In this document: piece by piece, positions 27,470 to 49,360 of the stretch
How positions within the stretch are numbered: the first letter of the stretch is position 1
Layout of the letters: the number at the start of each line of letters is the position of its first letter
Virus record (IMG/VR): IMGVR_UViG_3300023257_000002
Location: 1-49,360 of that record
Source: a virus
Taxonomy: Duplodnaviria > Caudoviricetes
Direction: 5' to 3' (one strand)
Length of the DNA stretch: 49,360 bases
Notes under the pieces: generated by a model
Databases searched by the model: none
Seen by the model: only the letters and a program-made list of their open reading frames with translations
Told to the model about the DNA's origin: nothing
Position numbers and translations under genes: made by a program

Positions 27470-27470
27470 G

Positions 27471-33175: not shown

Positions 33176-33196
33176 AGAACTACATGTATTTTATAC

Positions 33197-33211: not shown

Positions 33212-33220
33212 TACAAAAAA

Positions 33221-33418: not shown

Positions 33419-33903
33419 TATCCACCTCCCGTCATAAAGGCATAACCTATTACAGCTAATAATCCTAATCCTAATATCCATTTAAGTATACCACCCATTT
33501 GTTTGGTTGGTTTAATTATTTCTGATTGCATTTTCGCCATAAGAATTTTATAACCTTTAGTATTTGAACCATCGTTTAAAGATTTCTCATGTTCATCAGA
33601 TGGTGAATAAGGTTTTACACTCCAACTTGGGAGAATAACCATTGGATTTTTTTTCCATCTTAAAACATAATTTGGTGTGCCTAATCTTGGTATCCCATCT
33701 TCCATAAAAGTTTGTTCTACTATTTGTCTTTTTTGAAAATCTATATTTCCATTTTCATTTATTTTCATTACAGTTACATAGTTTCTTTTCTTTTGTGCCT
33801 TTCCAACTTTCTTACCAAAAGGTAGTCTAAATTTCTTTTTCTTTTCTTTTTCTTTTGGTCTTAGTATTGCTTTTATATCTTGTATTTCTTTATTTAATCC
33901 CAT
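33418..33903 (-). CDS. C-terminally anchored membrane protein
   Basis: 161 aa, single C-terminal TM, SD. Confidence 0.75.
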   Translation of the reverse strand: MGLNKEIQDIKAILRPKEKEKKKKFRLPFGKKVGKAQKKRNYVTVMKINENGNIDFQKRQIVEQTFMEDGIPRLGTPNYVLRWKKNPMVILPSWSVKPYSPSDEHEKSLNDGSNTKGYKILMAKMQSEIIKPTKQMGGILKWILGLGLLAVIGYAFMTGGG

Positions 33904-33931
33904 TTTTCCTCCTTTCTTTTATTTAGTTTTA

Positions 33932-34381
33932 TCATTTTTTTTGTTCTCCCCCACTCTCCTCGATTTTAGATTTTCCAAACCATCCCTTATTTATTTTTCT
34001 ACGAGGTGTCATATCCGAAACATTTTTTGTAACTGTTGTTGCCTGTTTTATTAAGAACCCTTCACTTGATAGACTTGTTGCTAATGTATTTTCTGCTTCT
34101 TCATTAAACCATTGAGCAAAAACATCATTATCCATTATTAAACTACTAATTCTTCCTAATTCAAAACTTCCCCTAACATTATGTGGGGGTATTCCTAACT
34201 CGTTGAAATCTTTATCATTTCTTAGATTACCAATCTTTTTTGTATCGTCTGCCGTTGCTACATTAAATAGAAAGGTATGGATTGATTGTTTATCTTCTTT
34301 TGCTTGATTACTGTCTTTCATTGCAGCAGCTATCTTTAAAATTGCTTCTTCGTCGCTAATATTTTCTTCTTCTTCAGCCAT
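33932..34381 (-). CDS. Hypothetical protein, probable morphogenesis cluster
   Basis: 149-aa ORF. Confidence 0.75.
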   Translation of the reverse strand: MAEEEENISDEEAILKIAAAMKDSNQAKEDKQSIHTFLFNVATADDTKKIGNLRNDKDFNELGIPPHNVRGSFELGRISSLIMDNDVFAQWFNEEAENTLATSLSSEGFLIKQATTVTKNVSDMTPRRKINKGWFGKSKIEESGGEQKK

Positions 34382-34604
34382 TTTTTAACCAACCTGTTTT
34401 TATTGCACGAAACAAAGTCGCAAATAATCCTAAACCATATAAAGCATAAGAGAAAAAATTAAATCCAGATACACTTATCCAAAGAACTGCTAAAAGTATT
34501 GGAGTAAAAATTGTTAAGGTTACATCTATTCCTGCGATTGTTGCTAAAAATATTTTTGTTATTTTATTCATTATTCTATTGGTTCTGCCATTGATTCTCT
34601 CCAC
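34374..34604 (-). CDS. Small membrane protein
   Basis: Two TM helices; start may be the second Met. Confidence 0.65.
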   Translation of the reverse strand: MERINGRTNRIMNKITKIFLATIAGIDVTLTIFTPILLAVLWISVSGFNFFSYALYGLGLFATLFRAIKTGWLKNG

Positions 34605-34716
34605 TCTCTAATCAAATCAATTAGTGTTTTTTTTGTTACTTTGCAGTAAATCATTATTCCTAGTGTTAAAAATATTCCGACTACTAATAAATTGCTGAAT
34701 AGGTTTTCCTGCCACA

Positions 34717-35085
34717 TTATCTAAGTAGTTTTAGTTTTAATTTATTTGTATGACTCTCATTAACCATAGACATTATCAATCCTATAAAAAATAAAATCAT
34801 AGAAGCATAAACCATTACCTCACTTAAAGAAATAAATGACTGTCTAAATGTTTCAATCCCAACACCTGTTAGGAGAGATACTACAATGTAAAATAATCCA
34901 TAATAAAATAATAACTTAATTGGGTAAAAGAATAGAGTTATCCATGAAGTATTATTTCTTTCAATAATCTGTTCATAAGCATTTCGTTCTACTAAATTAA
35001 GAGAATAAAATTTCTTTTTTGCTAATTCAATTTCTTTAAGTTTTTTCTTTCTTCTTTCTTCGTATAATTTTATATAATCATTCAT
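34717..35085 (-). CDS. Two-TM membrane protein
   Basis: 122 aa. Confidence 0.65.
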   Translation of the reverse strand: MNDYIKLYEERRKKKLKEIELAKKKFYSLNLVERNAYEQIIERNNTSWITLFFYPIKLLFYYGLFYIVVSLLTGVGIETFRQSFISLSEVMVYASMILFFIGLIMSMVNESHTNKLKLKLLR

Positions 35086-35411
35086 TTTATTTTTTGTACC
35101 CTATGTCCTTGTCTTTGAATATAAAGAGGTTTGTATCCTATTTTACTTAAATCTTCCATTACATATTTTACTCTTTCCATTTCTGTTTTATAAGTTTTTA
35201 ATTTATCTTTAAATCTTTTAATTGTTTCTTCTTTCCAGTCGCTTCTATCTTTTAAATCTGGATGTTCTTTTATTGAACCTACCTTATCTATTTTGATTGA
35301 ATCAATAGGAACTAATGCCCCTCCAAATTGACCAGTCCTAAAATAACAATTTTCTTTATCCACCCTTACTTCAATTTTTTCAGAGCCGTATTCAAATATT
35401 ATCCCAATCAT
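35082..35411 (-). CDS. Hypothetical protein
   Basis: 109 aa, coupled. Confidence 0.7.
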   Translation of the reverse strand: MIGIIFEYGSEKIEVRVDKENCYFRTGQFGGALVPIDSIKIDKVGSIKEHPDLKDRSDWKEETIKRFKDKLKTYKTEMERVKYVMEDLSKIGYKPLYIQRQGHRVQKIK

Positions 35412-35412
35412 T

Positions 35413-35607
35413 CTAATCCACTAATCCACTTTTAATCTCTTTAGTTATGTTTAAAAGTTCTACAATTGCTTGTTCAGATGTAATTATATCTCCTGTTGGT
35501 GTTTGAATTGCTATTGCCTCACCAGTTGGAACAGTTACTAATTTATAGTCTTCTTCTTTAACTTTTTTAACTTCCTTTTTTTCTTCTTTTATTTCTGTTT
35601 CTTCCAT
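35413..35607 (-). CDS. Hypothetical protein
   Basis: 64 aa with SD. Confidence 0.65.
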   Translation of the reverse strand: MEETEIKEEKKEVKKVKEEDYKLVTVPTGEAIAIQTPTGDIITSEQAIVELLNITKEIKSGLVD

Positions 35608-35796
35608 TTTTCTTCCTCCATAAATTTAGTTATTAATTTTAAATTATTAGTAACTAAAACTAATTCTCCGTTTTTTATTTTTGACTTCTTCGGAATTATT
35701 AGATACTTTATTCCATCCGTTCTGATTAAAACTTTTCTTATTTCCATTTCTCACCTCACTTAAAAGATATAACATATTATAATATATGATAATAGG

Positions 35797-35811
35797 TTTA
35801 TAAATATCGAT
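35797..35811 (-). promoter_or_regulatory. Conserved promoter motif (copy 8)
   Basis: Exact 15-mer. Confidence 0.85.
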
Positions 35812-35813
35812 GT

Positions 35814-36407
35814 TTAATCTATGATTAATTCATAAGCAGAACGAAGTGAAATATATGCAGCTAACATTAAAATTATAATTCCAATTGCCCAAGTATAGAC
35901 AGGGTCTCTTATTCCATCAAGTCCAAAGAATAGAATATAAAGTCCCATAAAATATAATCCAAAAGAACCTAAAATAACTATAACAGCATCTTTTAATGCA
36001 AATCCTAAAATGATTACTCCAAAAGATAATCCAAGAATTAAAATATAAAATCCTAATGTCCCTGAAAATCCTGAAGGGGTAATATTATAATATCCTTCAT
36101 TTGAATAAGAATAAGACCCATCAGTACAAAACATTTGAACTTTGTATATTTCTGCCTTTGGAAATGTAGTAGTATAATTAAATGCCCCATTTCCTAATTC
36201 ATTTGTTAGTTGGTTATTTATTAAATAATTTCCTTCCTTATCTGTAATAGTTATATTAAATGTTGCACTTGTTGGGATTGCGTTATCTAAGGTACAAGTA
36301 AATTGTAGATTTGTTTTAGTATTTATTTTATAAGTTTCTGTTTCCGCAGATGCAAAACTAATCATAAACATTCCTACTATTAATAACATTATTAATTTAT
36401 TTTTCAT
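35814..36407 (-). CDS. Exported Ig-like protein with three C-terminal TM helices
   Basis: Signal peptide GMFMISFASA identical to that of the 1238-aa protein; sequons. Confidence 0.8.
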   Translation of the reverse strand: MKNKLIMLLIVGMFMISFASAETETYKINTKTNLQFTCTLDNAIPTSATFNITITDKEGNYLINNQLTNELGNGAFNYTTTFPKAEIYKVQMFCTDGSYSYSNEGYYNITPSGFSGTLGFYILILGLSFGVIILGFALKDAVIVILGSFGLYFMGLYILFFGLDGIRDPVYTWAIGIIILMLAAYISLRSAYELIID

Positions 36408-36487
36408 TTTTTTCCTCCATGATTTAATTTTCGTAAACCTCAGTTAAAGCGAATCGGTATCCTATTAAATTTAATATTACAATTTTA

Positions 36488-38611
36488 TCATTTAATACAT
36501 TCCTTTAATTTTATGAAATCATCTGAATTTATTATACAATCTTTAAGCATTTGATTTTCTATTTCTAAATCATTAACCTTTTGAATAACTTTATAATTAG
36601 AATATTCAATCCAACTACTCCAACTTTGTAATCCTTCCATAAAAACAACCTCACCACCATAACCTCTTGTAAAATTCTTTTGTAAAAAAGGAGGTCTATT
36701 ACTATGTTCCATAACTAAATTATTTGTTTTATCATCTAGTTTAGAATACTCACTAACATCTTTAAAATATTTAAAAGGATTTCCATACTTTTCTTCATCA
36801 TAAACACTTGAACGATAATAAATATCTCCACCTTCTCCTAAAATAATACTTCCATTAAATTCATTATATTCTCCCGCAGGTATTATTTTTCTAACACTAA
36901 TATCATCTAAACTCATATTAAATATAGTTATAGGACCATCTTGGTCTATAATAAAATATAAACTTGAATTTGTTGGTGCAACAACTGTATAAGAATAATC
37001 ACCAACTTCTCCTCCATCAACATTACTATTATGAACAGCTACTGATGTTCCAGTTCCAATATCTCCACCAAACAATATCTCTAACCGCTCAGTAAAAGGA
37101 GTAACATCCCAATCTAAAATACTATATTTAACTTCATAAGTATCTCCTGCAATTAAGGGAACATGTTGGATTAATTGAACACCTGCAATATTCCCCATAT
37201 GATAATATCTTTCGGCTTTTAAACCTGAATCATGACCCCACCCCGTTCCTTCTATCCAACCATCTGAATTACTAGTAAATTCACCATTAATAATTTTTTC
37301 ATATTCATAAGATAAAGCTTTTGTTTCTCCAAAGATAATTCCTTCAATAGTAGCATTATTTGCTGTCTTAAAATTATCAGTTGCACCTGCACCTTCTGTC
37401 CAATTATAAAATCCATCTCCAACTATATCTGTAAGTTGTGAACCATCTCCAAAATATGTGTCTGCTGTTATGTTTCCTGTTACGTTTAAATCTCCATAAA
37501 CAATTGCATTATTCAAAAGTCCAATATCTCCACCACTTGAACTTATAGAAAATTCAGAACCAGAAGTTATTTTAAATTGTCCATAAATATTACTCTCTCC
37601 AGTTGGATAACCATAAATCCTAAAATCTCTATTTTCTCCACTTGCGCTATCTTCAAAAACTCTAATTCCATCAACTAAGTTAGCACCTGGATTAAATCCC
37701 ATGTGACTTTCTCCATCCTCTAATTGAAGAAAGGTCGTCGTAAATGGTGTTGTTGTTGTTCCTAATCTTACTTGAACTTTGTCGTCAGACTCAAATATAA
37801 AATTTCCAGAAGAACCATTACTATATAATTTAACATCCTGTCCAGCCCCGAGTTGCAAACCATTTGTATCACTTGCTATGTTTATATTTGAAGATGTCTC
37901 TAATTCTCCAGTTGAACTTATTGTTAAATCTCCACCTGCAAATCCAGCAGAACCATTCATTACATTAATAAATGCATTGCCTTGGTCTGCACTTGTTGCT
38001 TGAATTGTTGTATCAAAAACTATCTCTTGTCTATCATTCATAAAAGTATATCCACCAACAAACCTATCATTTAAGAACCATTTAACAAATCCACCTCTCG
38101 GTCCAAAAGGACCACCAACATCTATCCCATTTAAAGTCAAACCAACTTGATTAGTTGTGTTTTTATTAACTTCCAAACCTTCTCCAAAACTCCCGCTTCC
38201 TGTTGTTTTAAAATCCTCAGTTGTATCAGTCCAGTCAATATGCTCATCAGCAACACAATCTAAGAAAGTATCATGCCCTGTTCTGTTTGTAAAATAGCAA
38301 TCATTTAAGAATGTTATATCTCCATCTGTATCAGTTGCTATTGTGTCAAACTCTCCTGCTGGGGCAGAAACTTTAACAAAAGTAGGACTCGCAGTAGTCT
38401 GAACATCTTGATGTGGATGGTCGCCTGTTAAGTCATCAACATATTTTTTATTGGCAATATCAGAATCATTAGTTGGCACCTTTTCAACAGTCCCCTCCTT
38501 AGTGGCTACATTCTTACGAACAGCGAAGTCGTCTAAAATTCCAGCAGATTTCTTTTGTAGAGGAGCATTAACCTTTTTTGGATAACTCCTAATTAATGGG
38601 TTCTTTGCCAT
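36488..38611 (-). CDS. Fibre/receptor-binding protein, probably chimeric across the repeat
   Basis: No signal peptide, DIANKKYVDD fibre motif, contains the 185-bp repeat, C-terminal coiled coil; likely start MAKNP. Confidence 0.75.
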   Translation of the reverse strand: MAKNPLIRSYPKKVNAPLQKKSAGILDDFAVRKNVATKEGTVEKVPTNDSDIANKKYVDDLTGDHPHQDVQTTASPTFVKVSAPAGEFDTIATDTDGDITFLNDCYFTNRTGHDTFLDCVADEHIDWTDTTEDFKTTGSGSFGEGLEVNKNTTNQVGLTLNGIDVGGPFGPRGGFVKWFLNDRFVGGYTFMNDRQEIVFDTTIQATSADQGNAFINVMNGSAGFAGGDLTISSTGELETSSNINIASDTNGLQLGAGQDVKLYSNGSSGNFIFESDDKVQVRLGTTTTPFTTTFLQLEDGESHMGFNPGANLVDGIRVFEDSASGENRDFRIYGYPTGESNIYGQFKITSGSEFSISSSGGDIGLLNNAIVYGDLNVTGNITADTYFGDGSQLTDIVGDGFYNWTEGAGATDNFKTANNATIEGIIFGETKALSYEYEKIINGEFTSNSDGWIEGTGWGHDSGLKAERYYHMGNIAGVQLIQHVPLIAGDTYEVKYSILDWDVTPFTERLEILFGGDIGTGTSVAVHNSNVDGGEVGDYSYTVVAPTNSSLYFIIDQDGPITIFNMSLDDISVRKIIPAGEYNEFNGSIILGEGGDIYYRSSVYDEEKYGNPFKYFKDVSEYSKLDDKTNNLVMEHSNRPPFLQKNFTRGYGGEVVFMEGLQSWSSWIEYSNYKVIQKVNDLEIENQMLKDCIINSDDFIKLKECIK
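37599..37783. repeat. 185-bp perfect direct repeat, internal copy
   Basis: Identical to 49262-49319 + 1-127; diverged similarity spans about 37577-37890. Confidence 0.97.
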
Positions 38612-38612
38612 C

Positions 38613-39455
38613 TTAGGCCGCCTTAACAACTATTGCATAACCAGTTCCATTGCTTGCTGTGAAAGAAATGTCATCAGCTACTAGGGGAGTTGCGTTATAT
38701 CTTAATCTTGAATCAAATTCTGAATAACCATTATATAATATTATGTCCCCAACTGCCGTCCCGTCGTAAGTTCCTGCGTTAGCCACATTGACATATCCAT
38801 TGTTCATATCCCAGTGTGCTATTAAGTTTGTTGTATAATTGGCATTGACATAATCGTCATTAACCTGTGTATCGCTTAGGTTTGTGTCCCAATATTTCAC
38901 TGCACCAATAGCCCCTTTAAATTCAAGAGTTAATGCTCCGCCTCCAGCGATAGAATCAGCACATCCAATATGTCCTCCGTCGATTAATGCCCATGTATCA
39001 AACCAATAGGTAGGTTCTGTAACATCTGTCTCTGTTAGAGTTCCCTTTCTTAATGAAAATTCAACACCATTAATATAAATCTTTGGCTTAACTGCATCTT
39101 GAACTATTGCGATGTGTGTCCATTCATGAGCCTTAACATCTGCTCCTACTGTAACCATATCAAAAGCTACATTGGGTCCTGTCATTGCTGACTTGATAGT
39201 TATTTCTCCTGCAATAACTGCTGCATAAAAATACTGGACTGCACTTTCATCTCCACATCCAATAAAAGCATAGGTTCCTGTGTTGTCTGCTGGGTTAATC
39301 CAAGCTGTGAAAGTTCCTTTAGTGTCATTAGCTGCAACTCTACCGGCTGCGAAAGTATCAATCTGCACCCCGTCATCAGTAGCCCCTCCTAAGAAAGCGA
39401 CTGCTTTACGACCGTCAAGCCCCCCAGTAATTTGGTAAATATCTCCTGCTGCCAT
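38613..39455 (-). CDS. LamG/concanavalin A-like virion protein
   Basis: TFTAWINP...WTHIAIV...KIYINGV...FKGAIGAVKYWD..LS. Confidence 0.85.
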   Translation of the reverse strand: MAAGDIYQITGGLDGRKAVAFLGGATDDGVQIDTFAAGRVAANDTKGTFTAWINPADNTGTYAFIGCGDESAVQYFYAAVIAGEITIKSAMTGPNVAFDMVTVGADVKAHEWTHIAIVQDAVKPKIYINGVEFSLRKGTLTETDVTEPTYWFDTWALIDGGHIGCADSIAGGGALTLEFKGAIGAVKYWDTNLSDTQVNDDYVNANYTTNLIAHWDMNNGYVNVANAGTYDGTAVGDIILYNGYSEFDSRLRYNATPLVADDISFTASNGTGYAIVVKAA

Positions 39456-39625
39456 TAAGAACTCGTCACTGTTTCTTCACTTGTGCCTGCCACAGTTACG
39501 AAACCTAATTTAGTTGCATTAACATCAAAACAAAAACTTCCCTCTTCCCCGTTGTAAAAATCCGCGCTTGTCCCATCTGCAATATTTGGGAGAACTAAAG
39601 CTGTTGGTCTTAATATATCTTCCAT
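39455..39625 (-). CDS. Small virion protein, paralogue of 39625-39816
   Basis: Start MEDILRP by TAATG overlap; shared ILRP..LVLP and VTSS termini. Confidence 0.7.
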   Translation of the reverse strand: MEDILRPTALVLPNIADGTSADFYNGEEGSFCFDVNATKLGFVTVAGTSEETVTSS

Positions 39626-39816
39626 TATGAAGAGGTCACCACAGACCATGATCCGGCGCCGACTGTCCTATCAACATCACACCAATTTATTTTATTAGTA
39701 GTAGAATTATAAATTATTGTTCCGAGTTCTGCCTTCATCAAATCTCTATTAACTGTTGTAACATGTGGAAGAACTAAAGTTATCGGTCTAAGAATTTCAT
39801 TTACTGGACTTGACAT
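39625..39816 (-). CDS. Small virion protein, capsid spike/decoration-like
   Basis: LVLP.VTT..RD...GTIIYNSTTNKI...W motif. Confidence 0.7.
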   Translation of the reverse strand: MSSPVNEILRPITLVLPHVTTVNRDLMKAELGTIIYNSTTNKINWCDVDRTVGAGSWSVVTSS

Positions 39817-39955
39817 TTTTAGCCTCCTTAGGTTTTGCTTCCTTAGGCTCCTCTGTCTTTAGTGTTGCAATATATTCTAAAGTCTCAGAATTATCTAAAA
39901 ATCTTCCTGCTTCATAATTAAGTTTCCCACGAGACAATCTTCCTTCAGCTGTCAT
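39797..39955 (-). CDS. 52-aa protein downstream of MCP
   Basis: Manual translation MTAEGRLSRG...; TAATG coupling. Confidence 0.6.
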   Translation of the reverse strand: MTAEGRLSRGKLNYEAGRFLDNSETLEYIATLKTEEPKEAKPKEAKNVKSSK

Positions 39956-40839
39956 TATGTCTTCCTCGTGTTTGTAATTTTACAGATTTCATTAGGTGCT
40001 TGTGATTGAAATACTCCTCGTTCCCATGCGTCAATCTGTGTGTATTTACCGGGAGTTACTGTTGTAGCTGTTGATAGAGGTGTTGCTTGTTTCCAAACCA
40101 TTCCCTGTTTTGCTACAAGAACAAAAGCGCTATCTGCTGTGACCACTTCCGAAACAACAATCGTCAATCCCAAAAGACTTCCTTGCTGTCCGTTCTTCAT
40201 CACTCCACTTGAATAAGTTGGATGGTTTAGAACTTTTGTGTTTGAAATAATGTTTGTGTAATCTTGACCATTAACTACAAGCTTACCATTACCTGCCAAA
40301 GCATCAATACCATCTGCTCTTAAAAGTTGTATAGCGTCGAGAATATCTTTAACTGGGTCTCTGTTCGCGACAGTTGCCGAATCCCATTCACTTCCAATAG
40401 TTACTGCGTGAGTGTTTCCGTAACCAGTTGTCACAGTTGAACAAGCGTCATGTATTGCTTTGTCTTCTTGGTAGATAATCTTTCTTCCAATTCTATAAAT
40501 CTTTCTTTGAAGCATTGGGACTGTTGCGTATTGTCCTGCTTCCATAGAAATCATACTTGTTGCTGCGTATTTCTCAATAACAGAACTAACCTTTGTTTCC
40601 TTTACATCAACATAAGGGAATGGTGTAAACTCTGGGACTCCTCCGATTGGAGAATATGAGTCTGCGCCGGGATCTGTAGAATCGTCGTTTGTTTCTCTAA
40701 AATAACTTTCTGTATAAGAGTCTGATTTGTCGATAGCACACATAGCCTTCCATTTTTCCTCAACCTTAACAACTGCCTTAACTGCAGAATCAATATACTC
40801 TTTTCTTAATTCAGCTTCTCTCTCTATTTCAGCTGCCAT
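39955..40839 (-). CDS. Major capsid protein, HK97 fold inferred
   Basis: 294 aa, canonical position after portal, scaffold and decoration genes; GSLLGLTIVVSE and PNEICKIT motifs typical of HK97-type MCPs. Confidence 0.8.
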   Translation of the reverse strand: MAAEIEREAELRKEYIDSAVKAVVKVEEKWKAMCAIDKSDSYTESYFRETNDDSTDPGADSYSPIGGVPEFTPFPYVDVKETKVSSVIEKYAATSMISMEAGQYATVPMLQRKIYRIGRKIIYQEDKAIHDACSTVTTGYGNTHAVTIGSEWDSATVANRDPVKDILDAIQLLRADGIDALAGNGKLVVNGQDYTNIISNTKVLNHPTYSSGVMKNGQQGSLLGLTIVVSEVVTADSAFVLVAKQGMVWKQATPLSTATTVTPGKYTQIDAWERGVFQSQAPNEICKITNTRKT

Positions 40840-40840
40840 C

Positions 40841-41239
40841 TTATACTAACGTCCCCACGTCTACCGTGACTTGTCCGCCAGTTCCGCTTTCTTCTGTTAG
40901 AATTTTACCAACAACAGCTCCAACGATAGTGTCTGCTTCTGTTGCTAATCTTATTGTGTTTGCTCCAGCAATAGATACCGCATTACCTGCTGGGATTGCT
41001 GCCGCAGTTGAAGTCATTTCCCATCTTCCATTCATAGCGACTGTTAATTCAGTAACTCCTTCGTTTGCTGTATGTGCTACCCAACAGATTCCTCCGAATG
41101 GATCCGCACTTGCTGCACTCACGACCACAGTTCCATCATTCTCTGCTTTCATAATTGTTCCGATAGGTACCGCCGTAGTATTATCGATTATTCTACGCTT
41201 AAAAATTGTTGGTGCTTCAATGCATACTGCTACTGCCAT
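40841..41239 (-). CDS. Capsid cement/decoration protein
   Basis: 132 aa, A/G/V/T-rich beta protein directly before MCP. Confidence 0.7.
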   Translation of the reverse strand: MAVAVCIEAPTIFKRRIIDNTTAVPIGTIMKAENDGTVVVSAASADPFGGICWVAHTANEGVTELTVAMNGRWEMTSTAAAIPAGNAVSIAGANTIRLATEADTIVGAVVGKILTEESGTGGQVTVDVGTLV

Positions 41240-41260
41240 AGTTATTCGGTGTGTCGAATA

Positions 41261-41410
41261 CTATTTAAATGTTTTGATTTTGGCTTGAACTGATTTTAGA
41301 ATTAACTCTCCTTCTTCTATGCCATCTTCAGCTAAAATTTTGTTCTTTTTGTTTATAGCAATCCCCTCTAGAAGTTTTTTCTCTATTGCTTGCCAGTCTT
41401 TTTTATTCAT
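41261..41410 (-). CDS. 49-aa hypothetical protein
   Basis: Manual translation MNKKDWQAIEKK... Confidence 0.5.
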   Translation of the reverse strand: MNKKDWQAIEKKLLEGIAINKKNKILAEDGIEEGELILKSVQAKIKTFK

Positions 41411-41732
41411 TTGCTTTCTTAATATCTTCTTCTAATTGAGTTCCTTCAAAGAATTTACTAGCCCCTTTAACTTTCTTCTCATCTTCGGTTTCTTTAACAG
41501 GTTCTTGCCCTGCGACAGTTTGACCGCCCACCATTTGAACCGCTTGTAATTTTTCTTTTCTTTCAGTTAATTTTTTATCTTCTTCTAGAAGTCTCGCTTT
41601 TTCTTTATTAATCTCTTCCGCTCTATCAAGTTCAGAAATTCCTTCATCTTTAGGACTATCTAAAGGTGGTGTCGACGGCTCCGGTTTACCTTCAGAATTG
41701 TCCGTTGGTGTTGGTGGTGAATCTTCTACCAT
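41403..41732 (-). CDS. Probable scaffolding protein
   Basis: Acidic Pro-rich N-terminus plus coiled coil; start MVEDS about 25 nt after a TATA box. Confidence 0.65.
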   Translation of the reverse strand: MVEDSPPTPTDNSEGKPEPSTPPLDSPKDEGISELDRAEEINKEKARLLEEDKKLTERKEKLQAVQMVGGQTVAGQEPVKETEDEKKVKGASKFFEGTQLEEDIKKANE

Positions 41733-41830
41733 ATTAATATTATGTGTGTTCTCTTTATAAACTTTCCTATGCATTACTAGAAGGTGCGGAAGTCCGGGCT
41801 CCGGAAGTTTTCCATGAGGAGATTAGGACT

Positions 41831-42049
41831 TCACGGGAAGATCATAAACTTAGAATTATGTTGCTTGGTCATATCTATCTTATAGTTCTTGGCTAACTCT
41901 GCGAACGTATAAATTCCAGCTGCGATAAATGCCTGTTGGAAGTTCCAACAGTTAGACGCTAACGCTCCTGAGAATAGCATAAGTCCTCCGACGATAACCG
42001 CTCTCTTAATCACTCCATACCATACTTCCATATCTTGTTTAAATTTCAT
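41831..42049 (-). CDS. Small two-TM protein, holin-like
   Basis: 72 aa, ATGA overlap with portal. Confidence 0.55.
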   Translation of the reverse strand: MKFKQDMEVWYGVIKRAVIVGGLMLFSGALASNCWNFQQAFIAAGIYTFAELAKNYKIDMTKQHNSKFMIFP

Positions 42050-43212
42050 AATTTCTTTTTCACCGACGAGTTAGAAGGGTTTTTATCTTCTTTCTTCGCA
42101 GGTGTTTTTTTAATTTCTGATTTCTTTTCTCCGGAGAGGTTGCCATCCTTACCTTCATCTTCTGAAACACTATCATCAATACTTAATGGTTCGACTAGCT
42201 TTCCTTTGATGTTAAGTTGTTGGAAAATCTGTTGGTTTAAATCTTCTTGTTCATCCGCCACCGGTTGCTCGAATGTGAAGGCTACCATTTTTGAAGAGGC
42301 TTCATTTGTTCCGCCGGCGTTTCCTAGATGAAGTTCAGGCATACCTAAATCTTTAATCGCTTCACCCTTCCACTCCTTCCGCCAATCTAGAGGGTTCAGC
42401 GTCGCGAATTGAGGAACTTTAAAATCTGCTGTGTCCAGGGCCTTCTCTGGAATTACTAACCCCTTCCCTTTGTTCAACCCAGTTGTTAAGGATAATGTAA
42501 GTTTCGCTAACTCTGCTTCCTTGTCTGTCTTGGCTTTGAAGATAAGGAAAGGCATGACATATCTATGAAACACAACCGTCATGTCTTGATCAAGTTGCTC
42601 AATCTTATCCAGCATTTTCGTAGAGCCTTCATAAACGGAGATTCCGTGACCCTCGTCCCCTTCCCTGTCGTTTGATAAATGAAACACTTGCCAAGGTTCC
42701 AGTCGTTTCCCGATAGTTTTCCCTTCATTATCTACCTGCTCATATCCTATTGTAATCCCCGCAGTGTTTAGAAATATTTTTGTCTTTCCAGGATTAAGAG
42801 GTTTTACATTAATAAGATTTCTTCCGTTGGCTTCCGGTGGTTTCTTATTTGATGTGATAATTTCCGCGAAGGCATCACCATTAACTTTCTTAACCCTCAA
42901 CATATTTTTAAGAATTCCTTTGAATGTGTCGGTCCCATTTCCTCGAATTTTGTCTAGTCTTTTCTGTGTTGCCTCGTCGGTGTCAAATCCTCGGCCCGCA
43001 ATCCAAACTGCGTATTGAGTTATGGCCGCCTTAGTGCCCCCTTGGTTCTTTCGATAGTAGCCGTTATATTCCGCCCACTTTGGATTAACCCAGCCACTTT
43101 CTTCTAAAGCTGGAGAATCTAAATCTTGGCTCGGACTCGTAACAAGTGACAAAGTCCCGTCCGTATCGTTCATTACCTCGACATTATCGTAGTCTCTTGT
43201 TCCGTTTGCCAT
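42046..43212 (-). CDS. Portal protein
   Basis: KKVNGDAFAEI, VFHL...GHGIS motifs; position in head module. Confidence 0.8.
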   Translation of the reverse strand: MANGTRDYDNVEVMNDTDGTLSLVTSPSQDLDSPALEESGWVNPKWAEYNGYYRKNQGGTKAAITQYAVWIAGRGFDTDEATQKRLDKIRGNGTDTFKGILKNMLRVKKVNGDAFAEIITSNKKPPEANGRNLINVKPLNPGKTKIFLNTAGITIGYEQVDNEGKTIGKRLEPWQVFHLSNDREGDEGHGISVYEGSTKMLDKIEQLDQDMTVVFHRYVMPFLIFKAKTDKEAELAKLTLSLTTGLNKGKGLVIPEKALDTADFKVPQFATLNPLDWRKEWKGEAIKDLGMPELHLGNAGGTNEASSKMVAFTFEQPVADEQEDLNQQIFQQLNIKGKLVEPLSIDDSVSEDEGKDGNLSGEKKSEIKKTPAKKEDKNPSNSSVKKKL

Positions 43213-43243
43213 GGTTTGCTAAGAAAAACAGATTATTTAAACT

Positions 43244-44308
43244 TTACTTAATTCGCATTATCCACACCACATTGTAGTATGGAGGTCGATTTTCTGTGTT
43301 TGATGCTCCAGCCGTAGATCCTGTCACTATCTCATCTGTCTCTGCTCCCCCTGCATCAACAACTTCTAGAGCTGAAGTATTTCCAGTCCAACCTATTTTA
43401 CTACTTGTAAATTCTAAACTAGAAGCTTCAGTATGTCCTAAAATATGAGTATGCGCCATTGTTGCACTTCCCCCAGTTCCTTCTGATGTTGTATCTCCTC
43501 TTAAGAATTCTCCACCATTAAGATCAGGCATGTTTTGACCATCCATAGGTGAATCACCGTCGCTGACTGCTGACCCATCACACTCTCTCCAACCCGATGG
43601 CAAAGTTGCTGGGACGCCTGTCATGGATTTATTCCATGCAACTATCGCCCCGATTGGTGGGACTGTTGCCAAAGTTACGTCTGCCGTTATTGTAATGTCA
43701 TTAGAAGCCCCAACCGTTGAAATTCCATCACCTCCCAGAATGTCGATATTATGTACTGCTGGCGTTGCCGTTCCCGAATCTCCGTCGATAGAAGTAACCA
43801 CAATCGCCTTTAATGTTACATCCCCAGTTGCTACGTTGAAGTCTGTTAAATTAAATGTCGCTATTCCTTTGTTCGCGTCCGTTGCTAATTCACAAGATAT
43901 TGTTCCAGTCACATAATTAATCCCTTCTCCCGGTGTCATTCTTGCATCGATGTCTGTTGTCATATTATGGGTGTTTGTAGTTGCGTCGTGGTCTATCCCA
44001 CTATCATCAATCGTAACTGCCCCGGCGGTTACGTCGAAATCGCTTGCGTCGAACGTTGCGATCCCTTTGTTTCCTGTGTCCGTTGCGTGTTCTCCGTTAA
44101 TTGTTAAGGTTCCATTCGCTCCCGTATCTGTGAAGTCAATCCCTTCCCCTGCTGTTAGAACTCGTTCATCTGTTAAATCTGCGTGGAGGGCTAATGTTAA
44201 ATATTGAGGATCTGTTAATCCGACAGAAGTTGCTGTCGCTGTTGCCGCCGGAGTCTCTCGAACATCACGTTGAATAAAAACCTTTTCTCCCGGAATATCT
44301 AAAGTCAT
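43244..44308 (-). CDS. Fibre protein with C-terminal tail-collar-like domain
   Basis: KGIATF..DF.V repeats; PPIGAIVAW...LPSGWRECDG...PDLNG..FLRG...ENRPPYYNVVWIMRIK. Confidence 0.85.
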   Translation of the reverse strand: MTLDIPGEKVFIQRDVRETPAATATATSVGLTDPQYLTLALHADLTDERVLTAGEGIDFTDTGANGTLTINGEHATDTGNKGIATFDASDFDVTAGAVTIDDSGIDHDATTNTHNMTTDIDARMTPGEGINYVTGTISCELATDANKGIATFNLTDFNVATGDVTLKAIVVTSIDGDSGTATPAVHNIDILGGDGISTVGASNDITITADVTLATVPPIGAIVAWNKSMTGVPATLPSGWRECDGSAVSDGDSPMDGQNMPDLNGGEFLRGDTTSEGTGGSATMAHTHILGHTEASSLEFTSSKIGWTGNTSALEVVDAGGAETDEIVTGSTAGASNTENRPPYYNVVWIMRIK

Positions 44309-44682
44309 GCTATCCCCATCTCTTTTAGAACAGAACCATCTTTTAGGAGAATTTCAATCTTCTCCATTCTATGAATATGATATTGAACCATGTCTTCCGG
44401 TTCGATTAGGGATGAAAAGACCGCCCCTACCGTCGCCATGTTGTACATTATTGCAGAACAAGCGACATACCTTGCGACATATTCGGAGAGCATTTGTTTG
44501 TAGTTTGCTGATAGAGTTAAGACGTTTGCGGTGAGATCATAATTTACTAGAGCCGAAAGGAAGTTCTCGGCTTGGATTCCCCATGCGGTTTTATTGTCAT
44601 CTGTGAAGCCTGTTGCGTCGACTAGTTCTCCAGCCATTGCTAACATCTCCGCATCTGTTGATAAAACACTTGTTGCAGCCAT
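44305..44682 (-). CDS. Probable head-completion/adaptor protein
   Basis: 125-aa helical protein between TerL and the fibre gene. Confidence 0.5.
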   Translation of the reverse strand: MAATSVLSTDAEMLAMAGELVDATGFTDDNKTAWGIQAENFLSALVNYDLTANVLTLSANYKQMLSEYVARYVACSAIMYNMATVGAVFSSLIEPEDMVQYHIHRMEKIEILLKDGSVLKEMGIA

Positions 44683-44683
44683 A

Positions 44684-46054
44684 CTATAAAGACATGATAA
44701 AGGGTTTTAATAACTTTTGCTTTATGAGATAATAGCCCCTAATCACGCCTTCTACCTCATGTGAATCATTTCCGGATATTCTAACTTTTCCATTTGTAAA
44801 TTCCCATTGTATTGATTTGAAACTTGCGATTAATTCGTCATTGTTTAGAAGATGGAGTTTTCCTTGTTCTCCACCGATTAATGTGTAGTTGTACATATCT
44901 TCCTTTAGGAGGGGTTTGTGGCCTTCCTCAGCGTCTATATCCCTGCTCGCGTTATTAAGCCCCACTACTTTGTTTTCCGTTGAGGAGTCTCCCAAGAGGA
45001 TGTCAAGGACTCCGACACCCATCCCGCCATCATCTATTCCTATTTTATTAAAATCCCATAGTTCGTTCAGTCTTATTGCTTTCCTCGCTGTTTCGGTTAT
45101 TAATTGTCTTTTGGTTACGATTCTGAAAACTTGTGTTACGTTGTCGGGGTTAGTGCCATCTAAGCACTCGAAGGTTGTCTCGTCCTTTCCCATTCGCGCT
45201 ATGTCCATGCCTAGGAAGTAGTCTCTGGCTGGGAGGGGGCTTGTTATTAGGAAATTTTGTGTGGGGTCCACCTCTATAGGGGGGGGAAGTTGAGGTTTAG
45301 AGTCGCTAAGTAGTGTATTTGTGTTAAGTTGGTTGTTTAGGGTTATGTTGCATACTTTCTTAATCCATTGGTCTGAGTACACTCTCTTCAGTTCATCTAA
45401 GAACATAGCTAGATACTCTTGGGCGTATTGTAGTTCACTCATAGTTGCTCTCTCTGATGCTAGATACTCCTTAGTATGTCTTGGGCAGTCCTCTGCTGAT
45501 ACATAGAACTTAGTGTAATCATCTCTTAGTGAGCAGTCATAGAAGTATCCTTCCTTCCCTCTTGGGGTTGAGAGTATGTCTATAGTTCCTCCTGTTATAC
45601 TTATCATTGGGGTTACTGCTGTGAATATATCTCTATCCATTGGTGCTGCTTCATCTATTACTAAGTTTGTTATAGTCTCTCCTCTTAGTCCGTCTCCTGA
45701 TACTCCTGCTGCATAACACTTGATGATTGAGCCATTAGTTAGGTTGATTATATGTTTGGTTGGTCCTTTGTTACCCTTCCTTATGATCTTATTAGGGTAT
45801 TTGGCTTCTAAGTACATTAGTGTCTTGAAGAATAGTGAGTATGCTTGTTTCTCTGTGTATGCTATCATTAGTATGATTGAGTTGGGTTTAGTTGCTGCTC
45901 TCTTCCCGAACTTGATTGATGCTGCTGCTGTCTTACCTGATTGTCTCCCACATAGTAAGAAGCAGTTACCTTCTGTGTTGATATACTTGGTTTGCCATGG
46001 GTCCAGTGTCAGCCATGGTCTAAAGATGTCATACTTGGGGGTCTTGGTTGTCAT
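44684..46054 (-). CDS. terL: Terminase large subunit
   Basis: GRQSGKT Walker A, LRG...LVIDEAA Walker B, STPRG coupling motif, GMDIARMGKD nuclease motif; likely start MTTKTP. Confidence 0.93.
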   Translation of the reverse strand: MTTKTPKYDIFRPWLTLDPWQTKYINTEGNCFLLCGRQSGKTAAASIKFGKRAATKPNSIILMIAYTEKQAYSLFFKTLMYLEAKYPNKIIRKGNKGPTKHIINLTNGSIIKCYAAGVSGDGLRGETITNLVIDEAAPMDRDIFTAVTPMISITGGTIDILSTPRGKEGYFYDCSLRDDYTKFYVSAEDCPRHTKEYLASERATMSELQYAQEYLAMFLDELKRVYSDQWIKKVCNITLNNQLNTNTLLSDSKPQLPPPIEVDPTQNFLITSPLPARDYFLGMDIARMGKDETTFECLDGTNPDNVTQVFRIVTKRQLITETARKAIRLNELWDFNKIGIDDGGMGVGVLDILLGDSSTENKVVGLNNASRDIDAEEGHKPLLKEDMYNYTLIGGEQGKLHLLNNDELIASFKSIQWEFTNGKVRISGNDSHEVEGVIRGYYLIKQKLLKPFIMSL

Positions 46055-46055
46055 G

Positions 46056-46337
46056 TTATATGGTGTGGTGGCAGTCCTCACATAGTGTTTGTAGTTTGTT
46101 TGGGTCACATAGTAGGTGTTGGGTGATGAGGTTTATGATGTCATCCCATATATCTATTCCTTCTTTGTGGTGTACGTTGACTTTGACCTCTGCTCCCTTC
46201 TTCTTTGATTGTTTTATTCCACATTTGGTACAGGAGTAATTATCTCTCTTCATGGCTGTGGCTCTTTCGTAGGAGCGTACCCACATTTGTCTTAGTTGTC
46301 CTTTGATTCTAGCTCTTGATGTTCTTTCTGGTGTCAT
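46056..46337 (-). CDS. HNH endonuclease adjacent to terminase
   Basis: RDNYSCTKCG...VHH...LQTLCEDCH. Confidence 0.85.
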   Translation of the reverse strand: MTPERTSRARIKGQLRQMWVRSYERATAMKRDNYSCTKCGIKQSKKKGAEVKVNVHHKEGIDIWDDIINLITQHLLCDPNKLQTLCEDCHHTI

Positions 46338-46381
46338 AGTTGTTGTTGTTGTGTGTTCTTTATATATGTTGTTGTTTGTCA

Positions 46382-46720
46382 GGGGCGACCAGAGGGAGCC
46401 CCGTTGTATTAGGCTAGCGGAGCTAGCCCTATTGGTGGTTATCTGGCTGGCTTGCCAGCCCTATTGCCAGCTGTGCTGGCTAGCTATGCAAGTGCAACTT
46501 GCCGGCATGCTTATGAAGCTGGTTTGTCTGGTCCCCAAACCAGATTGATATGCTTGACGAGAGCTTGCCAGCTGACTAGCTGTTAGCAAGCTTAGATATG
46601 AGAGCTGAGGTAGCCCACAGCTCTCTAAATCCCCTTAGAAGGCTTGTATGGGCTTGTATGGTGCCTTCTCCAATCCGGCTAGAACTATTATGCTGTTAGC
46701 TTGCAGCACGGCAAGCTAAC
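46382..46720. other. GC-rich cluster of about nine tandem hairpins, candidate origin or packaging signal
   Basis: GGCTAGC/GCTAGCC, GGCTGGC/GCCAGCC, GCCAGC/GCTGGC, CTGGTTTG/CAAACCAG, GAGAGCTG/CAGCTCTC, GTTAGCTTGC/GCAAGCTAAC and others. Confidence 0.7.
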
Positions 46721-47138
46721 GTTGGATATATATTTAAAGCTGTTGATTGGAGACAAATCCGTTCGCACATACAAAACGAACGGAATCTATAAATAGCAGA
46801 ATGATTTATCGAGGGGATGAAAGATAGAAGTTTAGTACTCTTGATTGTGGGAAAGATTTTATTTGAATTAGGTGATCTATAGTTGTGGTTTATGAATTGT
46901 AGACTCCTTCAAAACCTCTACATCAGTAATCTATAACTACATCTTTATTAAATGATGTGTGTACTCTCTATATATCTAGAGTAGCCATTACTAAAAAAGC
47001 CAAGCAAAAGCCAGAAATTCCCTTTAAGGTACAGCATCATCTTAGCTAGAAGAGCGCTGTAAAAGGGGTTTACCGTCGCTATTTTTATTATTATCTCATT
47101 ACCCATAACTATTTAAATAAGAGAACACACAAATAATT

Positions 47139-47348
47139 ATGGTAAATGAAGTGATCATTTGGGTTGTTGCTTTCTTGGTTGTTCTAGTGGTTTATTTGAT
47201 ATATGAAAATTTGAGGTTTAGAATGGATATTTTAAGGATTGAAGTTAAGGAATCTTTTGATAGGGTTTGGGATGATTTTAACAAAATTGGCGAATGGATC
47301 AGAGTTGTTGATAATAAACTGTTGGAGTTAAAGTATGGTAAGTCATGA
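47139..47348 (+). CDS. Single-TM protein
   Basis: 69 aa with TATA box at about -25. Confidence 0.65.
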   Translation: MVNEVIIWVVAFLVVLVVYLIYENLRFRMDILRIEVKESFDRVWDDFNKIGEWIRVVDNKLLELKYGKS

Positions 47349-47511
47349 AGAACGTAAACTTGAAAGACTCAGGCATTTGGAAAATGCAATTAAGAAAGTT
47401 AATGAAAGTGGGAAGGAATTAGATCAAGAGAAATTAATCAATCAATGTATTATGAAATGGGGAAGTTCTAGGAGAACAATTTTGGAATATTTGAAAGTTG
47501 TTAGAAGTTAG
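47335..47511 (+). CDS. Small HTH protein
   Basis: Manual translation ...KWGSSRRTILEYLKVV. Confidence 0.6.
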   Translation: MVSHEERKLERLRHLENAIKKVNESGKELDQEKLINQCIMKWGSSRRTILEYLKVVRS

Positions 47512-47695
47512 GACCACATTTTAAGCCTTTTAAACCCCCCGTCAAAATTGAGGCTTATTCTTAGCATCCTTCTTCTGCCTAGCCAACCTCAAGTAACACT
47601 TACTACACAAGCCAAGAGCACAATGCACCTTCACCTCTCCACATTCCTTACACTTAATTCTTCTTCCCATGACTATGAACCCTCAAATAGAGGGC

Positions 47696-47992
47696 TTAAT
47701 AATTAAATTTTAGTTTTTTCCCATCTGTCCAGTTCTCCATCTTTGGATTGAATGCAGGCCACAACTCCCATCCACCTTTCTCATTCAAACAAAATGTTTC
47801 TCCCGTTTCATTCCGATACTTTAATATCAGCGTCCCAGTAGAGATCATATGTCCCCATTTATACCTTTGAATCACTATCGGGCTGTTGTTGTGCTTGAAT
47901 GTTTCCCTCCATATTTTTTCGTCTTCCATCTTCAGTAGTCTCTTCGCCTGTTCAAGAACTTTCTTTACTGTTTTGACAATTTTCCCATTCAT
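47696..47992 (-). CDS. Hypothetical protein
   Basis: ORF; start may be MEDEK. Confidence 0.5.
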   Translation of the reverse strand: MNGKIVKTVKKVLEQAKRLLKMEDEKIWRETFKHNNSPIVIQRYKWGHMISTGTLILKYRNETGETFCLNEKGGWELWPAFNPKMENWTDGKKLKFNY

Positions 47993-48161
47993 TTTTTAAT
48001 CTTAATGGGCTTAATTGTTTGAACCTTATTAATTGGATTGAGAATTGTTATTTTTATGACTGTATCACTTTTTATATCATAATTATCAACTTCAATCTTA
48101 TCAACTTCAACATCCTTAATAGCATTCAAGACGTCTCTTACTTTATCAACATTTGCCATCA

Positions 48162-48581
48162 TCAATTAAAGGCTTCTTGGGCTTGTTTTACCAACTTAAT
48201 ACAAGTGTCCATTATTTTTCCGCCTGTTTCAGGTGCTTCATTTGTTTCAGTTATCAATGCTACAAAACACTCAACAGCTAAACCAACAGGGTCTTTCTCA
48301 TAAGCCGAACCTTTGACTGACTTCCTCTTTTCGCTTGGGTTAACTTCAATCTTCTCAGCCATAGGTGTGACATTGCTCGGAGCGAATGCTCGGATATTCC
48401 AAAAGTCTCCTGATTGCTTTGTCTCAACCTCACATTCAATATTAAGATTCTTCTCGATGTTAGCCGCAATCTCTGAATCCCAAACTGTATACTTAGATCC
48501 ATTGATTGTTTCGCAAGACCAAAACGTAGTCTTGCCTTCACGAGCAACTTTCTTAATGCTTGTTATTGTTATTTTTTCCAT
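48162..48581 (-). CDS. Possible OB-fold ssDNA-binding protein
   Basis: Beta-rich N-terminal domain YTVWD...GDFWNI; SD GAAAGGGG. Confidence 0.5.
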   Translation of the reverse strand: MEKITITSIKKVAREGKTTFWSCETINGSKYTVWDSEIAANIEKNLNIECEVETKQSGDFWNIRAFAPSNVTPMAEKIEVNPSEKRKSVKGSAYEKDPVGLAVECFVALITETNEAPETGGKIMDTCIKLVKQAQEAFN

Positions 48582-48837
48582 CTTTTAAACCCCCTTTCAA
48601 TCCCCGGCTAATCACTTGCTTCCAAGTGAGCCCGAGTTTTGCTTTAAGTATTAACATCCTCTTGAACTCGTAGTCCTCGAAGAATATGTTTAAGTTTTTC
48701 ATAGATATATATAGTATAGTTAGTATTTAAACCTTCCTATTAATCAAATTCTTTTAACAAATCTTTCTTGAAAATTTTATGTCTATTCTCACTAACGATT
48801 TCTATTTCCTCGTCGCTGATTTTATTTATTTCCATAA

Positions 48838-49360
48838 TTATACGTGCTTTGCGTGGCTTACATCATACCAATCCGAACCATCACAAACTAATGTGAATCC
48901 TCCCCAGCTATCGATAGTTTCATCTGTTCCCTCATGCATATAAATCTCTTGAGTTCCTACTCCTTCTAAATGTTCTAAAGTTAAATCGTTGGTTGCGTCT
49001 TTTCTTGCGATATGTAAATACTGCCCATCAACTCCACCTTTTAATCCCCCAAGAACTACATTTCCCCCAGCGGTTGTTACAAATAATATATTAATTCCAC
49101 TAACATCATAATCATCAGAACTCGCTGTCAGCGTCGATGTGTTTGATGATATTTTTCCAGTAACATCTAAATTACTATCCACTTCAACCTCATCATTACT
49201 CGAACTTATTGTAAAAACAGGACCAGTTGTTACTTTAAGTTGTCCATAAATATTACTTTCCCCAGTTGGATAACCATAAATCCTAAAATCTCTATTTTCT
49301 CCACTTGCGCTATCTTCAAAAACTCTAATTCCATCAACTAAGTTAGCACCTGGATTAAAT
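48838..49360 (-). CDS. C-terminal part of a fibre protein entering from the window end
   Basis: Frame is open from 49360 to the stop at 48838; the ORF-track start at 49182 is internal. Confidence 0.8.
   Translation of the reverse strand, partial: FNPGANLVDGIRVFEDSASGENRDFRIYGYPTGESNIYGQLKVTTGPVFTISSSNDEVEVDSNLDVTGKISSNTSTLTASSDDYDVSGINILFVTTAGGNVVLGGLKGGVDGQYLHIARKDATNDLTLEHLEGVGTQEIYMHEGTDETIDSWGGFTLVCDGSDWYDVSHAKHV
49262..49360. repeat. Left part of the origin-spanning repeat copy, including the 41-nt terminal overlap
   Basis: 49262-49360 equals 37599-37697; 49320-49360 equals 1-41. Confidence 0.97.

Follow-up and report, generated by a model that had tools for sequence, protein, structure and literature searches.

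The 49,360-nt stretch of DNA analyzed here (the window; IMG/VR record IMGVR_UViG_3300023257_000002) comprises two separate viral genomes, one of a spindle-type virus and one of an HK97-type virus, which the assembler most likely joined in error where their predicted fibre genes contain the same 185-bp tract. The tract itself was likely homogenized by recent recombination within an archaeal host gene pool. We assign this reading a probability of roughly 0.87.

Architecture of the contig

The first 41 nt of the window recur at its end, giving a circle of 49,319 bp. An exact 185-bp repeat is present at 37599-37783 and again across the origin (49262-49319 plus 1-127), dividing the circle into loop A (37,656 bp) and loop B (11,663 bp).

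1..37656: loop A, circular genome of a spindle-type, likely archaeal virus, 37,656 bp, 30.7% guanine plus cytosine (GC); join present in contig L036; found without loop B in runs X20 and X24
37657..49319: loop B, circular minimal HK97-type virus genome, 11,663 bp, 39.7% GC; join present in contigs L031 and L002; family of ~11.7-12.5-kb circles
37599..37783, minus strand: exact 185-bp tract, copy 1, 61 codons; collapsed unitig at depth 29 in run X1
49262..49360, minus strand: exact 185-bp tract, copy 2, first part, running on into 1-127
1..127, minus strand: exact 185-bp tract, copy 2, second part
49320..49360: terminal overlap of the assembly, 41 nt, identical to 1-41

Both repeat copies lie in frame within long minus-strand genes. 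An earlier note, made from the sequence alone, had placed the repeat within two fibre genes and given these loop sizes, and its coordinates and numbers were correct. The note also proposed re-pairing the gene halves, big with big and small with small, on several grounds that fared differently. The re-paired joins do form open reading frames (ORFs), of 1095 and 478 amino acids (aa), but the assembled joins are likewise open (866 and 707 aa). As all four are open, reading frame does not discriminate between them. The contrast in GC content between big and small loop (30.7% vs 39.7%) was borne out, as were the unlike virion gene sets (a fusellovirus-like hairpin capsid protein and ATPase vs an HK97 capsid, portal, and terminase). 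The signal-peptide argument also stands: of the spindle-family genes tested, 10 of 10 encode a hydrophobic N-terminus, compared to 0 of 8 small-family fibres. A difference in promoter motifs held in part: all 8 copies of ATCGATATTTATAAA are in the big loop, but AAACATTTAAATA is common to both. Sequon density per 100 aa (big halves, 2.9 and 2.2; small halves, 1.8 and 0.7) was a weak argument for re-pairing and was rejected as decisive.

Joins and read depth in other assemblies

Two sequence collections were scanned with a 29-nt primer located inside the repeat. Nine stretches were recovered, three of which were the window's own contig. Among the six others, three span the repeat with both flanks, two stop inside it, and one belongs to a third virus. 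All three spanning contigs carry re-paired joins and none carries a hybrid join. L036 contains the big-big join (flanks matching at 400/400 and 400/400) with an intact 1095-aa ORF, while L031 (400/400 and 400/400) and L002 (400/400 and 397/400) contain the small-small join with the 478-aa ORF. The 707-aa hybrid protein is recorded from a single contig, of 49,360 nt. The length of L031 (11,958 nt) would fit a full circle plus an overlap of 295 nt.

Depth was compared over positions 29361-49360 in 4 of 24 salt-lake runs (X1, X4, X20, and X24; X2, X3, and X21-X23 were left out), using Logan depth, which assigns a single value to each contig. Depths of the big loop in X20 and X24 were 8-9.5 and 17-22, respectively (31362-37364), while the small loop fell below 0.7 in 17 of 17 bins in each. 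In X1, the big loop had a depth of ~18 (17.9 beside the repeat) and the small loop 9.8-16 (9.8-11.4 beside the repeat). A unitig spanning exactly 37599-37783 occurred in this run at depth 29, matching the sum of both loops and therefore indicating a collapsed repeat. In X4, depth was 22-112 for the small loop and 28-50 for the big loop. The earlier note had taken equal coverage in all samples, together with spanning reads for the assembled joins only, as the mark of a single stable genome; loop depths were unequal or independent in all four runs examined.

Two local depth features were also observed. Depth in X4 rose to 79-112 at 42701-46035, compared to 22-27 at 39-40 kb and 46.7-48.7 kb, which suggests a more abundant strain with the same portal-collar-terminase block. 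Loose ends at 37445-37477 were present in four of four runs, and a short motif just downstream of the module is common to other genomes; it also occurs in L030, L023, and G090.

The shared fibre module

The two fibre genes, each split by the assembled order, and the wider region of homology around the tract are as follows.

128..2119, minus strand: spindle-virus adhesin gene, 5' part; full gene 1095 aa, signal-peptide-like N-terminus, 19 sequons
36488..37598, minus strand: spindle-virus adhesin gene, 3' part (tip); no Pfam family
37784..38611, minus strand: HK97-virus fibre gene, 5' part; full gene 478 aa, N-terminal ~60 aa kept across the family
48838..49261, minus strand: HK97-virus fibre gene, 3' part (tip); Phage_depo_C-like beta sandwich (PF25692, E 7e-6, above the cut-off)
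37493..37897, minus strand: wider homologous fibre module around the tract, predicted homotrimer; flanks 71-83% identical

In the 1095-aa protein, the tract encodes residues 665-725, and in the 478-aa protein, residues 277-337. Identity falls to 83% across the 114 nt upstream and to 71% across the 106 nt downstream, and the genes are unrelated beyond. Within the tract, there are 0 differences in 185 nt, including 61 third positions (divergence <1.6%, 95%); at the identity of the upstream flank, zero differences would have a probability of 2e-15. The identity of 185/185 in the core against 71-83% in the flanks therefore reveals two layers, an older ~350-bp module and a recently homogenized exact core. 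In this respect, the proposal that two different viruses recently shared a fibre segment is upheld by an exact core inside diverged flanks in genomes with unlike virion gene sets. Its description as a receptor-binding segment was not sustained. The tract is internal to both proteins, family and PDB searches with the module matched no binding fold, and the C-terminal tips of the two fibres are unrelated. In fibres, the receptor is usually bound by the tip; by analogy, the mid-fibre tract is probably a shaft segment.

Structure prediction suggests that the module forms trimers. Three copies scored 0.68, compared to 0.00 for the best control (pLDDT, the predicted local distance difference test, ≥68; runs agreeing in ≥80% of contacts). 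Of 30 solved pairs, 20 attained this mark, as did 1 of 23 single chains; these counts hold only roughly for a run that used three copies and a three-row alignment of its own, unlike the calibration. The module matched no protein family and no PDB entry, and its Atlas matches were all <0.9. PDB sequence searches with both fibres gave no match, and modeling the 478-aa fibre from its sequence alone gave nothing usable (pLDDT 34). For the big tip, one scan of viral contigs matched only the same virus. In small-family relatives, the genes at this position contain an S74 chaperone domain (E 7e-10) or match BclA_C and Gp10_C more weakly, which is consistent with fibres. Each family has retained its own anchor: alongside the hydrophobic N-termini of the spindle family, a conserved soluble N-terminus was found in 8 of 8 small-family fibres.

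Exchange between the two virus families

The third virus recovered with the primer, L029, is an unrelated larger head-tail virus (encoding a terminase and a 585-aa portal-like protein) that carries the module at 91% identity over 322 nt. It differs from both viruses inside the core, so constraint alone does not account for their identity, and in the flanks it agrees with one or the other. A more distant copy, at 79-84% identity, occurs in P0243. The module is rare, being found in 3 clusters (262-837 aa) out of 5.8 billion and at 3 loci on viral contigs. L029:7142-9091 contains the shared module and two copies of the small virus's upstream module, and P0243 contains both modules and a tip 50% identical to that of L008.

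Comparison of 335 ORFs from 23 small-family loci with 434 ORFs from 15 spindle-family loci yielded 12 alignments. A LamG domain and a DNA methylase (51-56%) apart, these involved only fibre/adhesin modules, the shared module among them. The tip of the small virus was matched in the adhesin of spindle virus L022 (42% over 113 aa), and the fibres of L004, L005, L007, and L011 matched the L024 adhesin at 25-30%. No between-family match was found in this comparison for capsid, portal, terminase, or ATPase. As further fibre/adhesin matches exist between the families, fibre exchange, as judged from sequence, is not a one-off.

We propose that the older ~350-bp shaft module, already present in both fibres, supplied the homology. 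Later homologous recombination within it would have been resolved as a gene conversion tract or double crossover. For such an exchange, the two DNAs would have to meet in the same cell, or each of them would have to meet a third carrier in a cell. Each virus has kept its own anchor (a signal peptide or a conserved virion-attachment N-terminus) and its own tip, and thus the exchange need not have altered receptor specificity. The assembler most likely collapsed the 185-bp tract and walked both circles as one path.

The spindle-type genome

Loop A encodes a hairpin capsid protein and an ATPase in conserved order, with further features as listed.

2279..2497, minus strand: spindle-type major capsid protein, 72-aa hydrophobic helical hairpin; SSV19 VP1, E 3.4e-8; model helices 2-31 and 35-69, pLDDT 86
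3915..4889, plus strand: AAA+-type P-loop ATPase, adjoining the capsid gene in 6 of 6 relatives
5098..5115, minus strand: ORB-like (archaeal origin box) motif CAGTGGAAATCAAGGGGT, non-coding, after the ATPase; similar place in L022
7019..7090, plus strand: tRNA-Met(CAT)
8602..9327, minus strand: serine recombinase (resolvase family), PF00239, E 4e-16

Among phage records, all 58 matches of the 72-aa capsid protein at E≤1 were named Sulfolobus, Sulfolobales, or Betafusellovirus, although the best E was only 0.01. A Foldseek search with the hairpin model returned no match at E≤0.001. The ATPase has at least 1,342 homologue clusters and no match among 50,697 phage records. Spindle relatives share the order secreted protein, adhesin, capsid, small ORF, ATPase and lack the HK97 block. 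Of 4 spindle records, 0 matched the HK97 profile, and 2 (36,503 and 30,408 nt) carry terminal repeats. In addition, genome G285 (contig C3, L056-L057), a 0.5-Mb metagenome-assembled genome (MAG), contains a 24,296-nt spindle-type contig with the same gene set and a 122-nt terminal repeat, which is a complete ~24.2-kb circular spindle-type virus.

By gene content alone, loop A has the module of spindle-shaped viruses, a hydrophobic alpha-helical hairpin capsid protein with an AAA+ ATPase. The tyrosine integrase of Fuselloviridae and DNSVs was not found and a serine recombinase was present instead; among the 70 of 158 ORFs scanned, there was also no polymerase or PolB. The linear genome with protein-primed PolB that characterizes Halspiviridae and Thaspiviridae was likewise not seen, given the circular join and lack of a PolB match.

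Several other features of loop A were observed. A winged helix-turn-helix (wHTH) protein (18046-19065, minus strand) is a candidate replication initiator. It is conserved in L027 and L056 and ends in QKRITDFF, which we take to resemble a PCNA-binding PIP box. Homology of this protein with the wHTH protein of L019 was considered and rejected, being confined to the HTH (E 0.003). At 19512-20006 (minus strand) is a nucleotidyltransferase-like protein, for which PF19244 (poly(A) polymerase catalytic subunit) scored just above the cut-off. A 161-aa protein (20390-20875, minus strand) is hydrophobic at both ends, resembles the capsid hairpin by eye, and has the same upstream ribosome-binding stretch as the capsid gene; it is a possible minor capsid protein. 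The 1529-aa basic protein at 27927-32516 (minus strand) contains internal 132-nt repeats, and its position is kept in relatives while its length is very variable. The 249-aa ORF at 2581-3330 is divided into two 115-aa ORFs by a one-base difference in L036 (4564-5255). The tRNA-Met(CAT) lies amid AATGCCTT repeats (8 in the window vs 2.9 expected; 3 on the minus strand at 4936-5252 and 4 on the plus strand at 6928-7103).

The minimal HK97-type genome

Loop B encodes a compact set of virion genes.

38613..39455, minus strand: LamG/concanavalin-like virion protein, PF13385
39955..40839, minus strand: HK97-type major capsid protein, phrog_1650, E 3e-18; PF25209 on 119 of the best 120 homologues
42046..43212, minus strand: portal protein, phrog_9232; PF04860 below the cut-off
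43244..44308, minus strand: second fibre-like protein (tail collar fibre family), phrog_1800, E 2e-12
44684..46108, minus strand: terminase large subunit, phrog_2, E 1e-39; PF03237
46056..46337, minus strand: HNH nuclease beside the terminase

The capsid protein (assigned from sequence), portal, and terminase large subunit place loop B within Caudoviricetes. Capsid matches were found at 21 loci on 20 contigs, all of which are ≤12,620 nt and 2 of which have terminal repeats. In one small-family contig, the capsid gene is divided over both contig ends, and gene order is conserved across the family. At least 980 capsid homologue clusters exist. In 119 of the best 120, the longest contig is ≤12,646 nt, and in one it is 23,200 nt. 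The capsid had no match among the 50,697 phage records, and its profile had no PDB sequence match.

Scans of the small loop detected no polymerase, primase, helicase, replicase, or integrase. They also gave no tail tube, sheath, or tape-measure match, recovering the two fibre-like genes and the LamG protein. Capsid-forming PICIs (chromosomal islands that phages induce) and P4-like satellites are defined by an integrase and their own primase-replication module, none of which was detected in the small loop. Nor does it have either of the marks of SRCE/pSSVx-type satellites, a plasmid Rep and a spindle capsid or ATPase gene. Upstream of the HNH-terminase genes, a GC-richer non-coding region of 610 bp (46338-46947) with several inverted repeats is a candidate origin or packaging site.

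Restriction-type site avoidance

The two loops differ in their content of restriction-type sites. Observed/expected counts in the big loop were GATC 0/101, GGCC 0/15, CCGG 0/14, GCGC 0/10, CGCG 0/6, and GGNCC 1/21. In the small loop, they were GATC 17/40, GGCC 6/16, CCGG 20/19, GCGC 7/14, CGCG 7/9, and GGNCC 12/12. Avoidance in the big loop is thus complete for GATC, GGCC, CCGG, and CGCG and nearly so for GCGC and GGNCC. Counted as sites of the six motifs, the big virus (37.6 kb) has 2 and the small virus (11.7 kb) 69. This contrast suggests different long-term restriction regimes, and hence different long-term hosts or a recent host shift, and argues against a common host. Relatives in both families have avoidance sets of their own, with complete patterns in other small-family members, and these family-specific sets are a possible host fingerprint.

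Host assignment

Promoter and origin-like motifs make an archaeal host likely for both viruses. The 13-nt AAACATTTAAATA occurs 22-24 nt before start codons at 9361 and 18007 (big loop) and 41274 (small loop), and we take it to be a TATA-type promoter of leaderless genes. The ORB-like motif of the big loop is close to the archaeal ORB consensus given in PMC4153887. It was found in 36 of 401 genomes of the phylum of the MAG G002, compared to 0 for a reversed control, and 4 of 15 loci inspected adjoin orc1/cdc6. It also occurs in L022 (~11133), L056 (~909), and the small-family members L013 (~9646) and L020 (~734). The pattern was built after seeing examples, with seven found vs 2.4 expected. It is pan-archaeal and was not found in the window's small loop, and therefore names no host. 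Both families, having no recognized replicase, may borrow host Orc1/Cdc6.

Binned contigs point weakly to Nanoarchaeota-type archaea as the likely hosts. Among the binned small-family contigs, the closest (70%) belongs to G002, a Nanoarchaeota MAG which also has an ATPase relative on a virus-like contig, and the complete spindle circle of G285 comes from the same phylum. G002 itself had no match to the spindle capsid profile. Across the phylum, the spindle capsid was found in 1 of 401 genomes and the HK97 capsid in 2 of 401. Small-loop DNA matched 26 of 391 genomes, mostly through short AT-rich segments and with no control, and was not used as evidence. When the tRNA-Met(CAT) was compared to the same 391 genomes, there were 4 matches at 73-80% and no host match.

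Alternative interpretations

The earlier note left open whether the contig was a misjoin of two circles or a real cointegrate. The re-paired joins and the depth data favor the former and disfavor a stable cointegrate. A dominant, stable 49.3-kb cointegrate with tip-swapped fibres (707 and 866 aa) in the source sample would agree with hybrid joins that are both in frame. A single crossover in the tract would yield exactly this sequence, and the big loop encodes a serine recombinase. Against it are the absence of hybrid joins from the other three spanning contigs, the unequal or independent depth of its parts, the complete stand-alone circles known in both families, and the sharp difference in site avoidance between the loops, and we consider it extremely unlikely. 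A rare cointegrate intermediate is another matter: as the single-crossover product has the sequence of the contig, an intermediate of this kind may be compatible with the contig data. This is one of several points that weigh against our reading of two separate, misjoined genomes in an archaeal gene pool. All join evidence comes from short-read contigs, and depth from contigs rather than reads. Depth holes at 29361-30694 in X1 and X20 are unexplained, L036, L031, and L002 may not be independent of the window's own sample, and X2 and X3, also possible sources, were outside the depth comparison. With regard to host, 3 of 4 strong binned small-family contigs are in bacterial MAGs, the 391 genomes contained no spacer-like match to the small loop, and no CRISPR spacer or provirus tied either virus to a host. 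The departure of the trimer run from its calibration belongs here as well.

Under the preferred reading of two separate genomes, the exchange likely took place in a shared cell, and direct exchange between the two viruses is roughly an even bet. The earlier note held that a common host was implied. This fails as an implication, since a third carrier allows relay and site avoidance differs, but survives as a plausible reading. We give slightly less than an even chance to the view that a single host strain is at present infected by both viruses and that they recombined directly during co-infection, which is a special case of the preferred reading and no rival to the misjoin. The exact tract is present in these two viruses and not in the third carrier, the same archaeal-type promoter precedes genes of both, and they occur together in X1 and X4. 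The contents of G002 and G285 and the ORB-like motifs in members of both families point the same way. On the other side are the 2 vs 69 restriction-type sites, the 9-point GC difference, the different fibre tips, and the noisiness of MAG binning, including the lack of a spindle capsid match in G002. Alternatively, the tract could have reached both viruses through a third element (a virus or a host surface-protein gene) with no shared cell. The modules of L029 and P0243 make such a relay possible, and a summed depth of 238 on the module bin in X4, compared to ~25 for its neighbors, hints at more carriers. However, the exact tract was not found in any third carrier, L029 being different from both viruses within it, and the module is rare; we regard relay as possible but somewhat doubtful. 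Co-infection could also be accounted for if the small virus were a satellite needing the spindle virus for replication. It has no detected polymerase, primase, helicase, or integrase and was present only alongside the big virus in the runs examined. Yet four runs are too few, capsid, portal, terminase, and fibres are all encoded by the small virus itself, no recognized replicase exists in the big virus that it could provide, and two small-family members have an ORB-like host origin motif, making dependence decidedly unlikely. A bolder version of direct exchange, which we think unlikely, has the spindle-shaped and minimal HK97 viruses co-infecting the same nano-sized archaeon and recombining directly and repeatedly through the trimeric fibre module. 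Transient figure-of-eight cointegrates like this contig could then exchange entire receptor-binding tips between two unrelated virion architectures, of which one is secreted and the other is put together in the cytoplasm.

Comparison with known systems

Shared k-mers can join two genomes in an assembly graph to give a contig resembling a new species, according to Ayling et al. (PMC7299287). As in the chimeric metagenomic contigs described there, an inter-genomic repeat joins two genomes here; unlike them, both form complete circles, reading frame is preserved across the join, and the repeat itself is biologically informative.

The hairpin capsid and AAA+ ATPase form the signature module of spindle-shaped viruses according to Zhou et al. 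(10.1101/2025.02.15.638363). Loop A resembles Fuselloviridae (SSV19, SSV2) and the nanohaloarchaeal DNSV-1/-2 in having both genes, large adhesin-like genes, and no recognizable replicase, but at 37.7 kb is larger than the DNSVs (21-22 kb). It also differs in its serine recombinase, where Fuselloviridae and DNSVs have a tyrosine integrase. The smallest isolated tailed phages have 11.6 kb, with Salmonella phage astrithr and satellite P4 as the closest comparisons (10.1101/2025.06.18.659913). Loop B is like these in genome size and HK97 capsid, but has archaeal-type promoters and no detected replication, integration, or long-tail genes. It retains capsid, portal, and terminase, whereas satellite P4 is not known to have a capsid gene.

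Tail-fibre mosaicism has long been known in tailed phages (lambda, P2, T4, and Mu), where, as here, fibre segments recombine between otherwise unrelated viruses. Zhou et al. (10.1101/2025.02.15.638363) report that structural genes have passed between viruses of haloarchaea and of nanohaloarchaea, within virus groups. Those transfers stay within one virion architecture; here, the segment is shared at 100% nucleotide identity by a likely secreted spindle adhesin and a cytoplasmic HK97 fibre. Seven DPANN virus families were named by Wu, Liu and Ni 2024 (as cited in PMC13573593). These possibly share the host superphylum, and either family here may already be named among them. Neither is described in the main-text parts of PMC10866085, PMC11310336, PMC11705971, and PMC13573593. 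A literature search, with most subscription papers and supplements outside its range, found no publication on fibre exchange between a spindle-shaped and a head-tail virus or on the ~12-kb family.

Implications

The figure-of-eight is most likely an artefact, and the 49-kb "genome" should be split; left whole, it would be taken for a virus that has two capsid types. Splitting gives two complete genomes of large families whose HK97 capsid and ATPase have no deposited phage record, one of them a small virus genome at the lower size limit for tailed viruses. What remains real is that a spindle-type virus and an HK97-type virus have exchanged a fibre segment at full nucleotide identity, and that relatives of both show older exchanges of this sort. 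Fibre mosaicism is known, and its crossing of virion architectures is what is new. Exact shared tracts of this kind offer a way to link viruses of uncultured hosts. The exchange also suggests that one trimeric module tolerates both secretion and cytoplasmic folding. Together, our data suggest that, in these archaea, viruses of different virion architecture draw on a common pool of attachment-protein parts.

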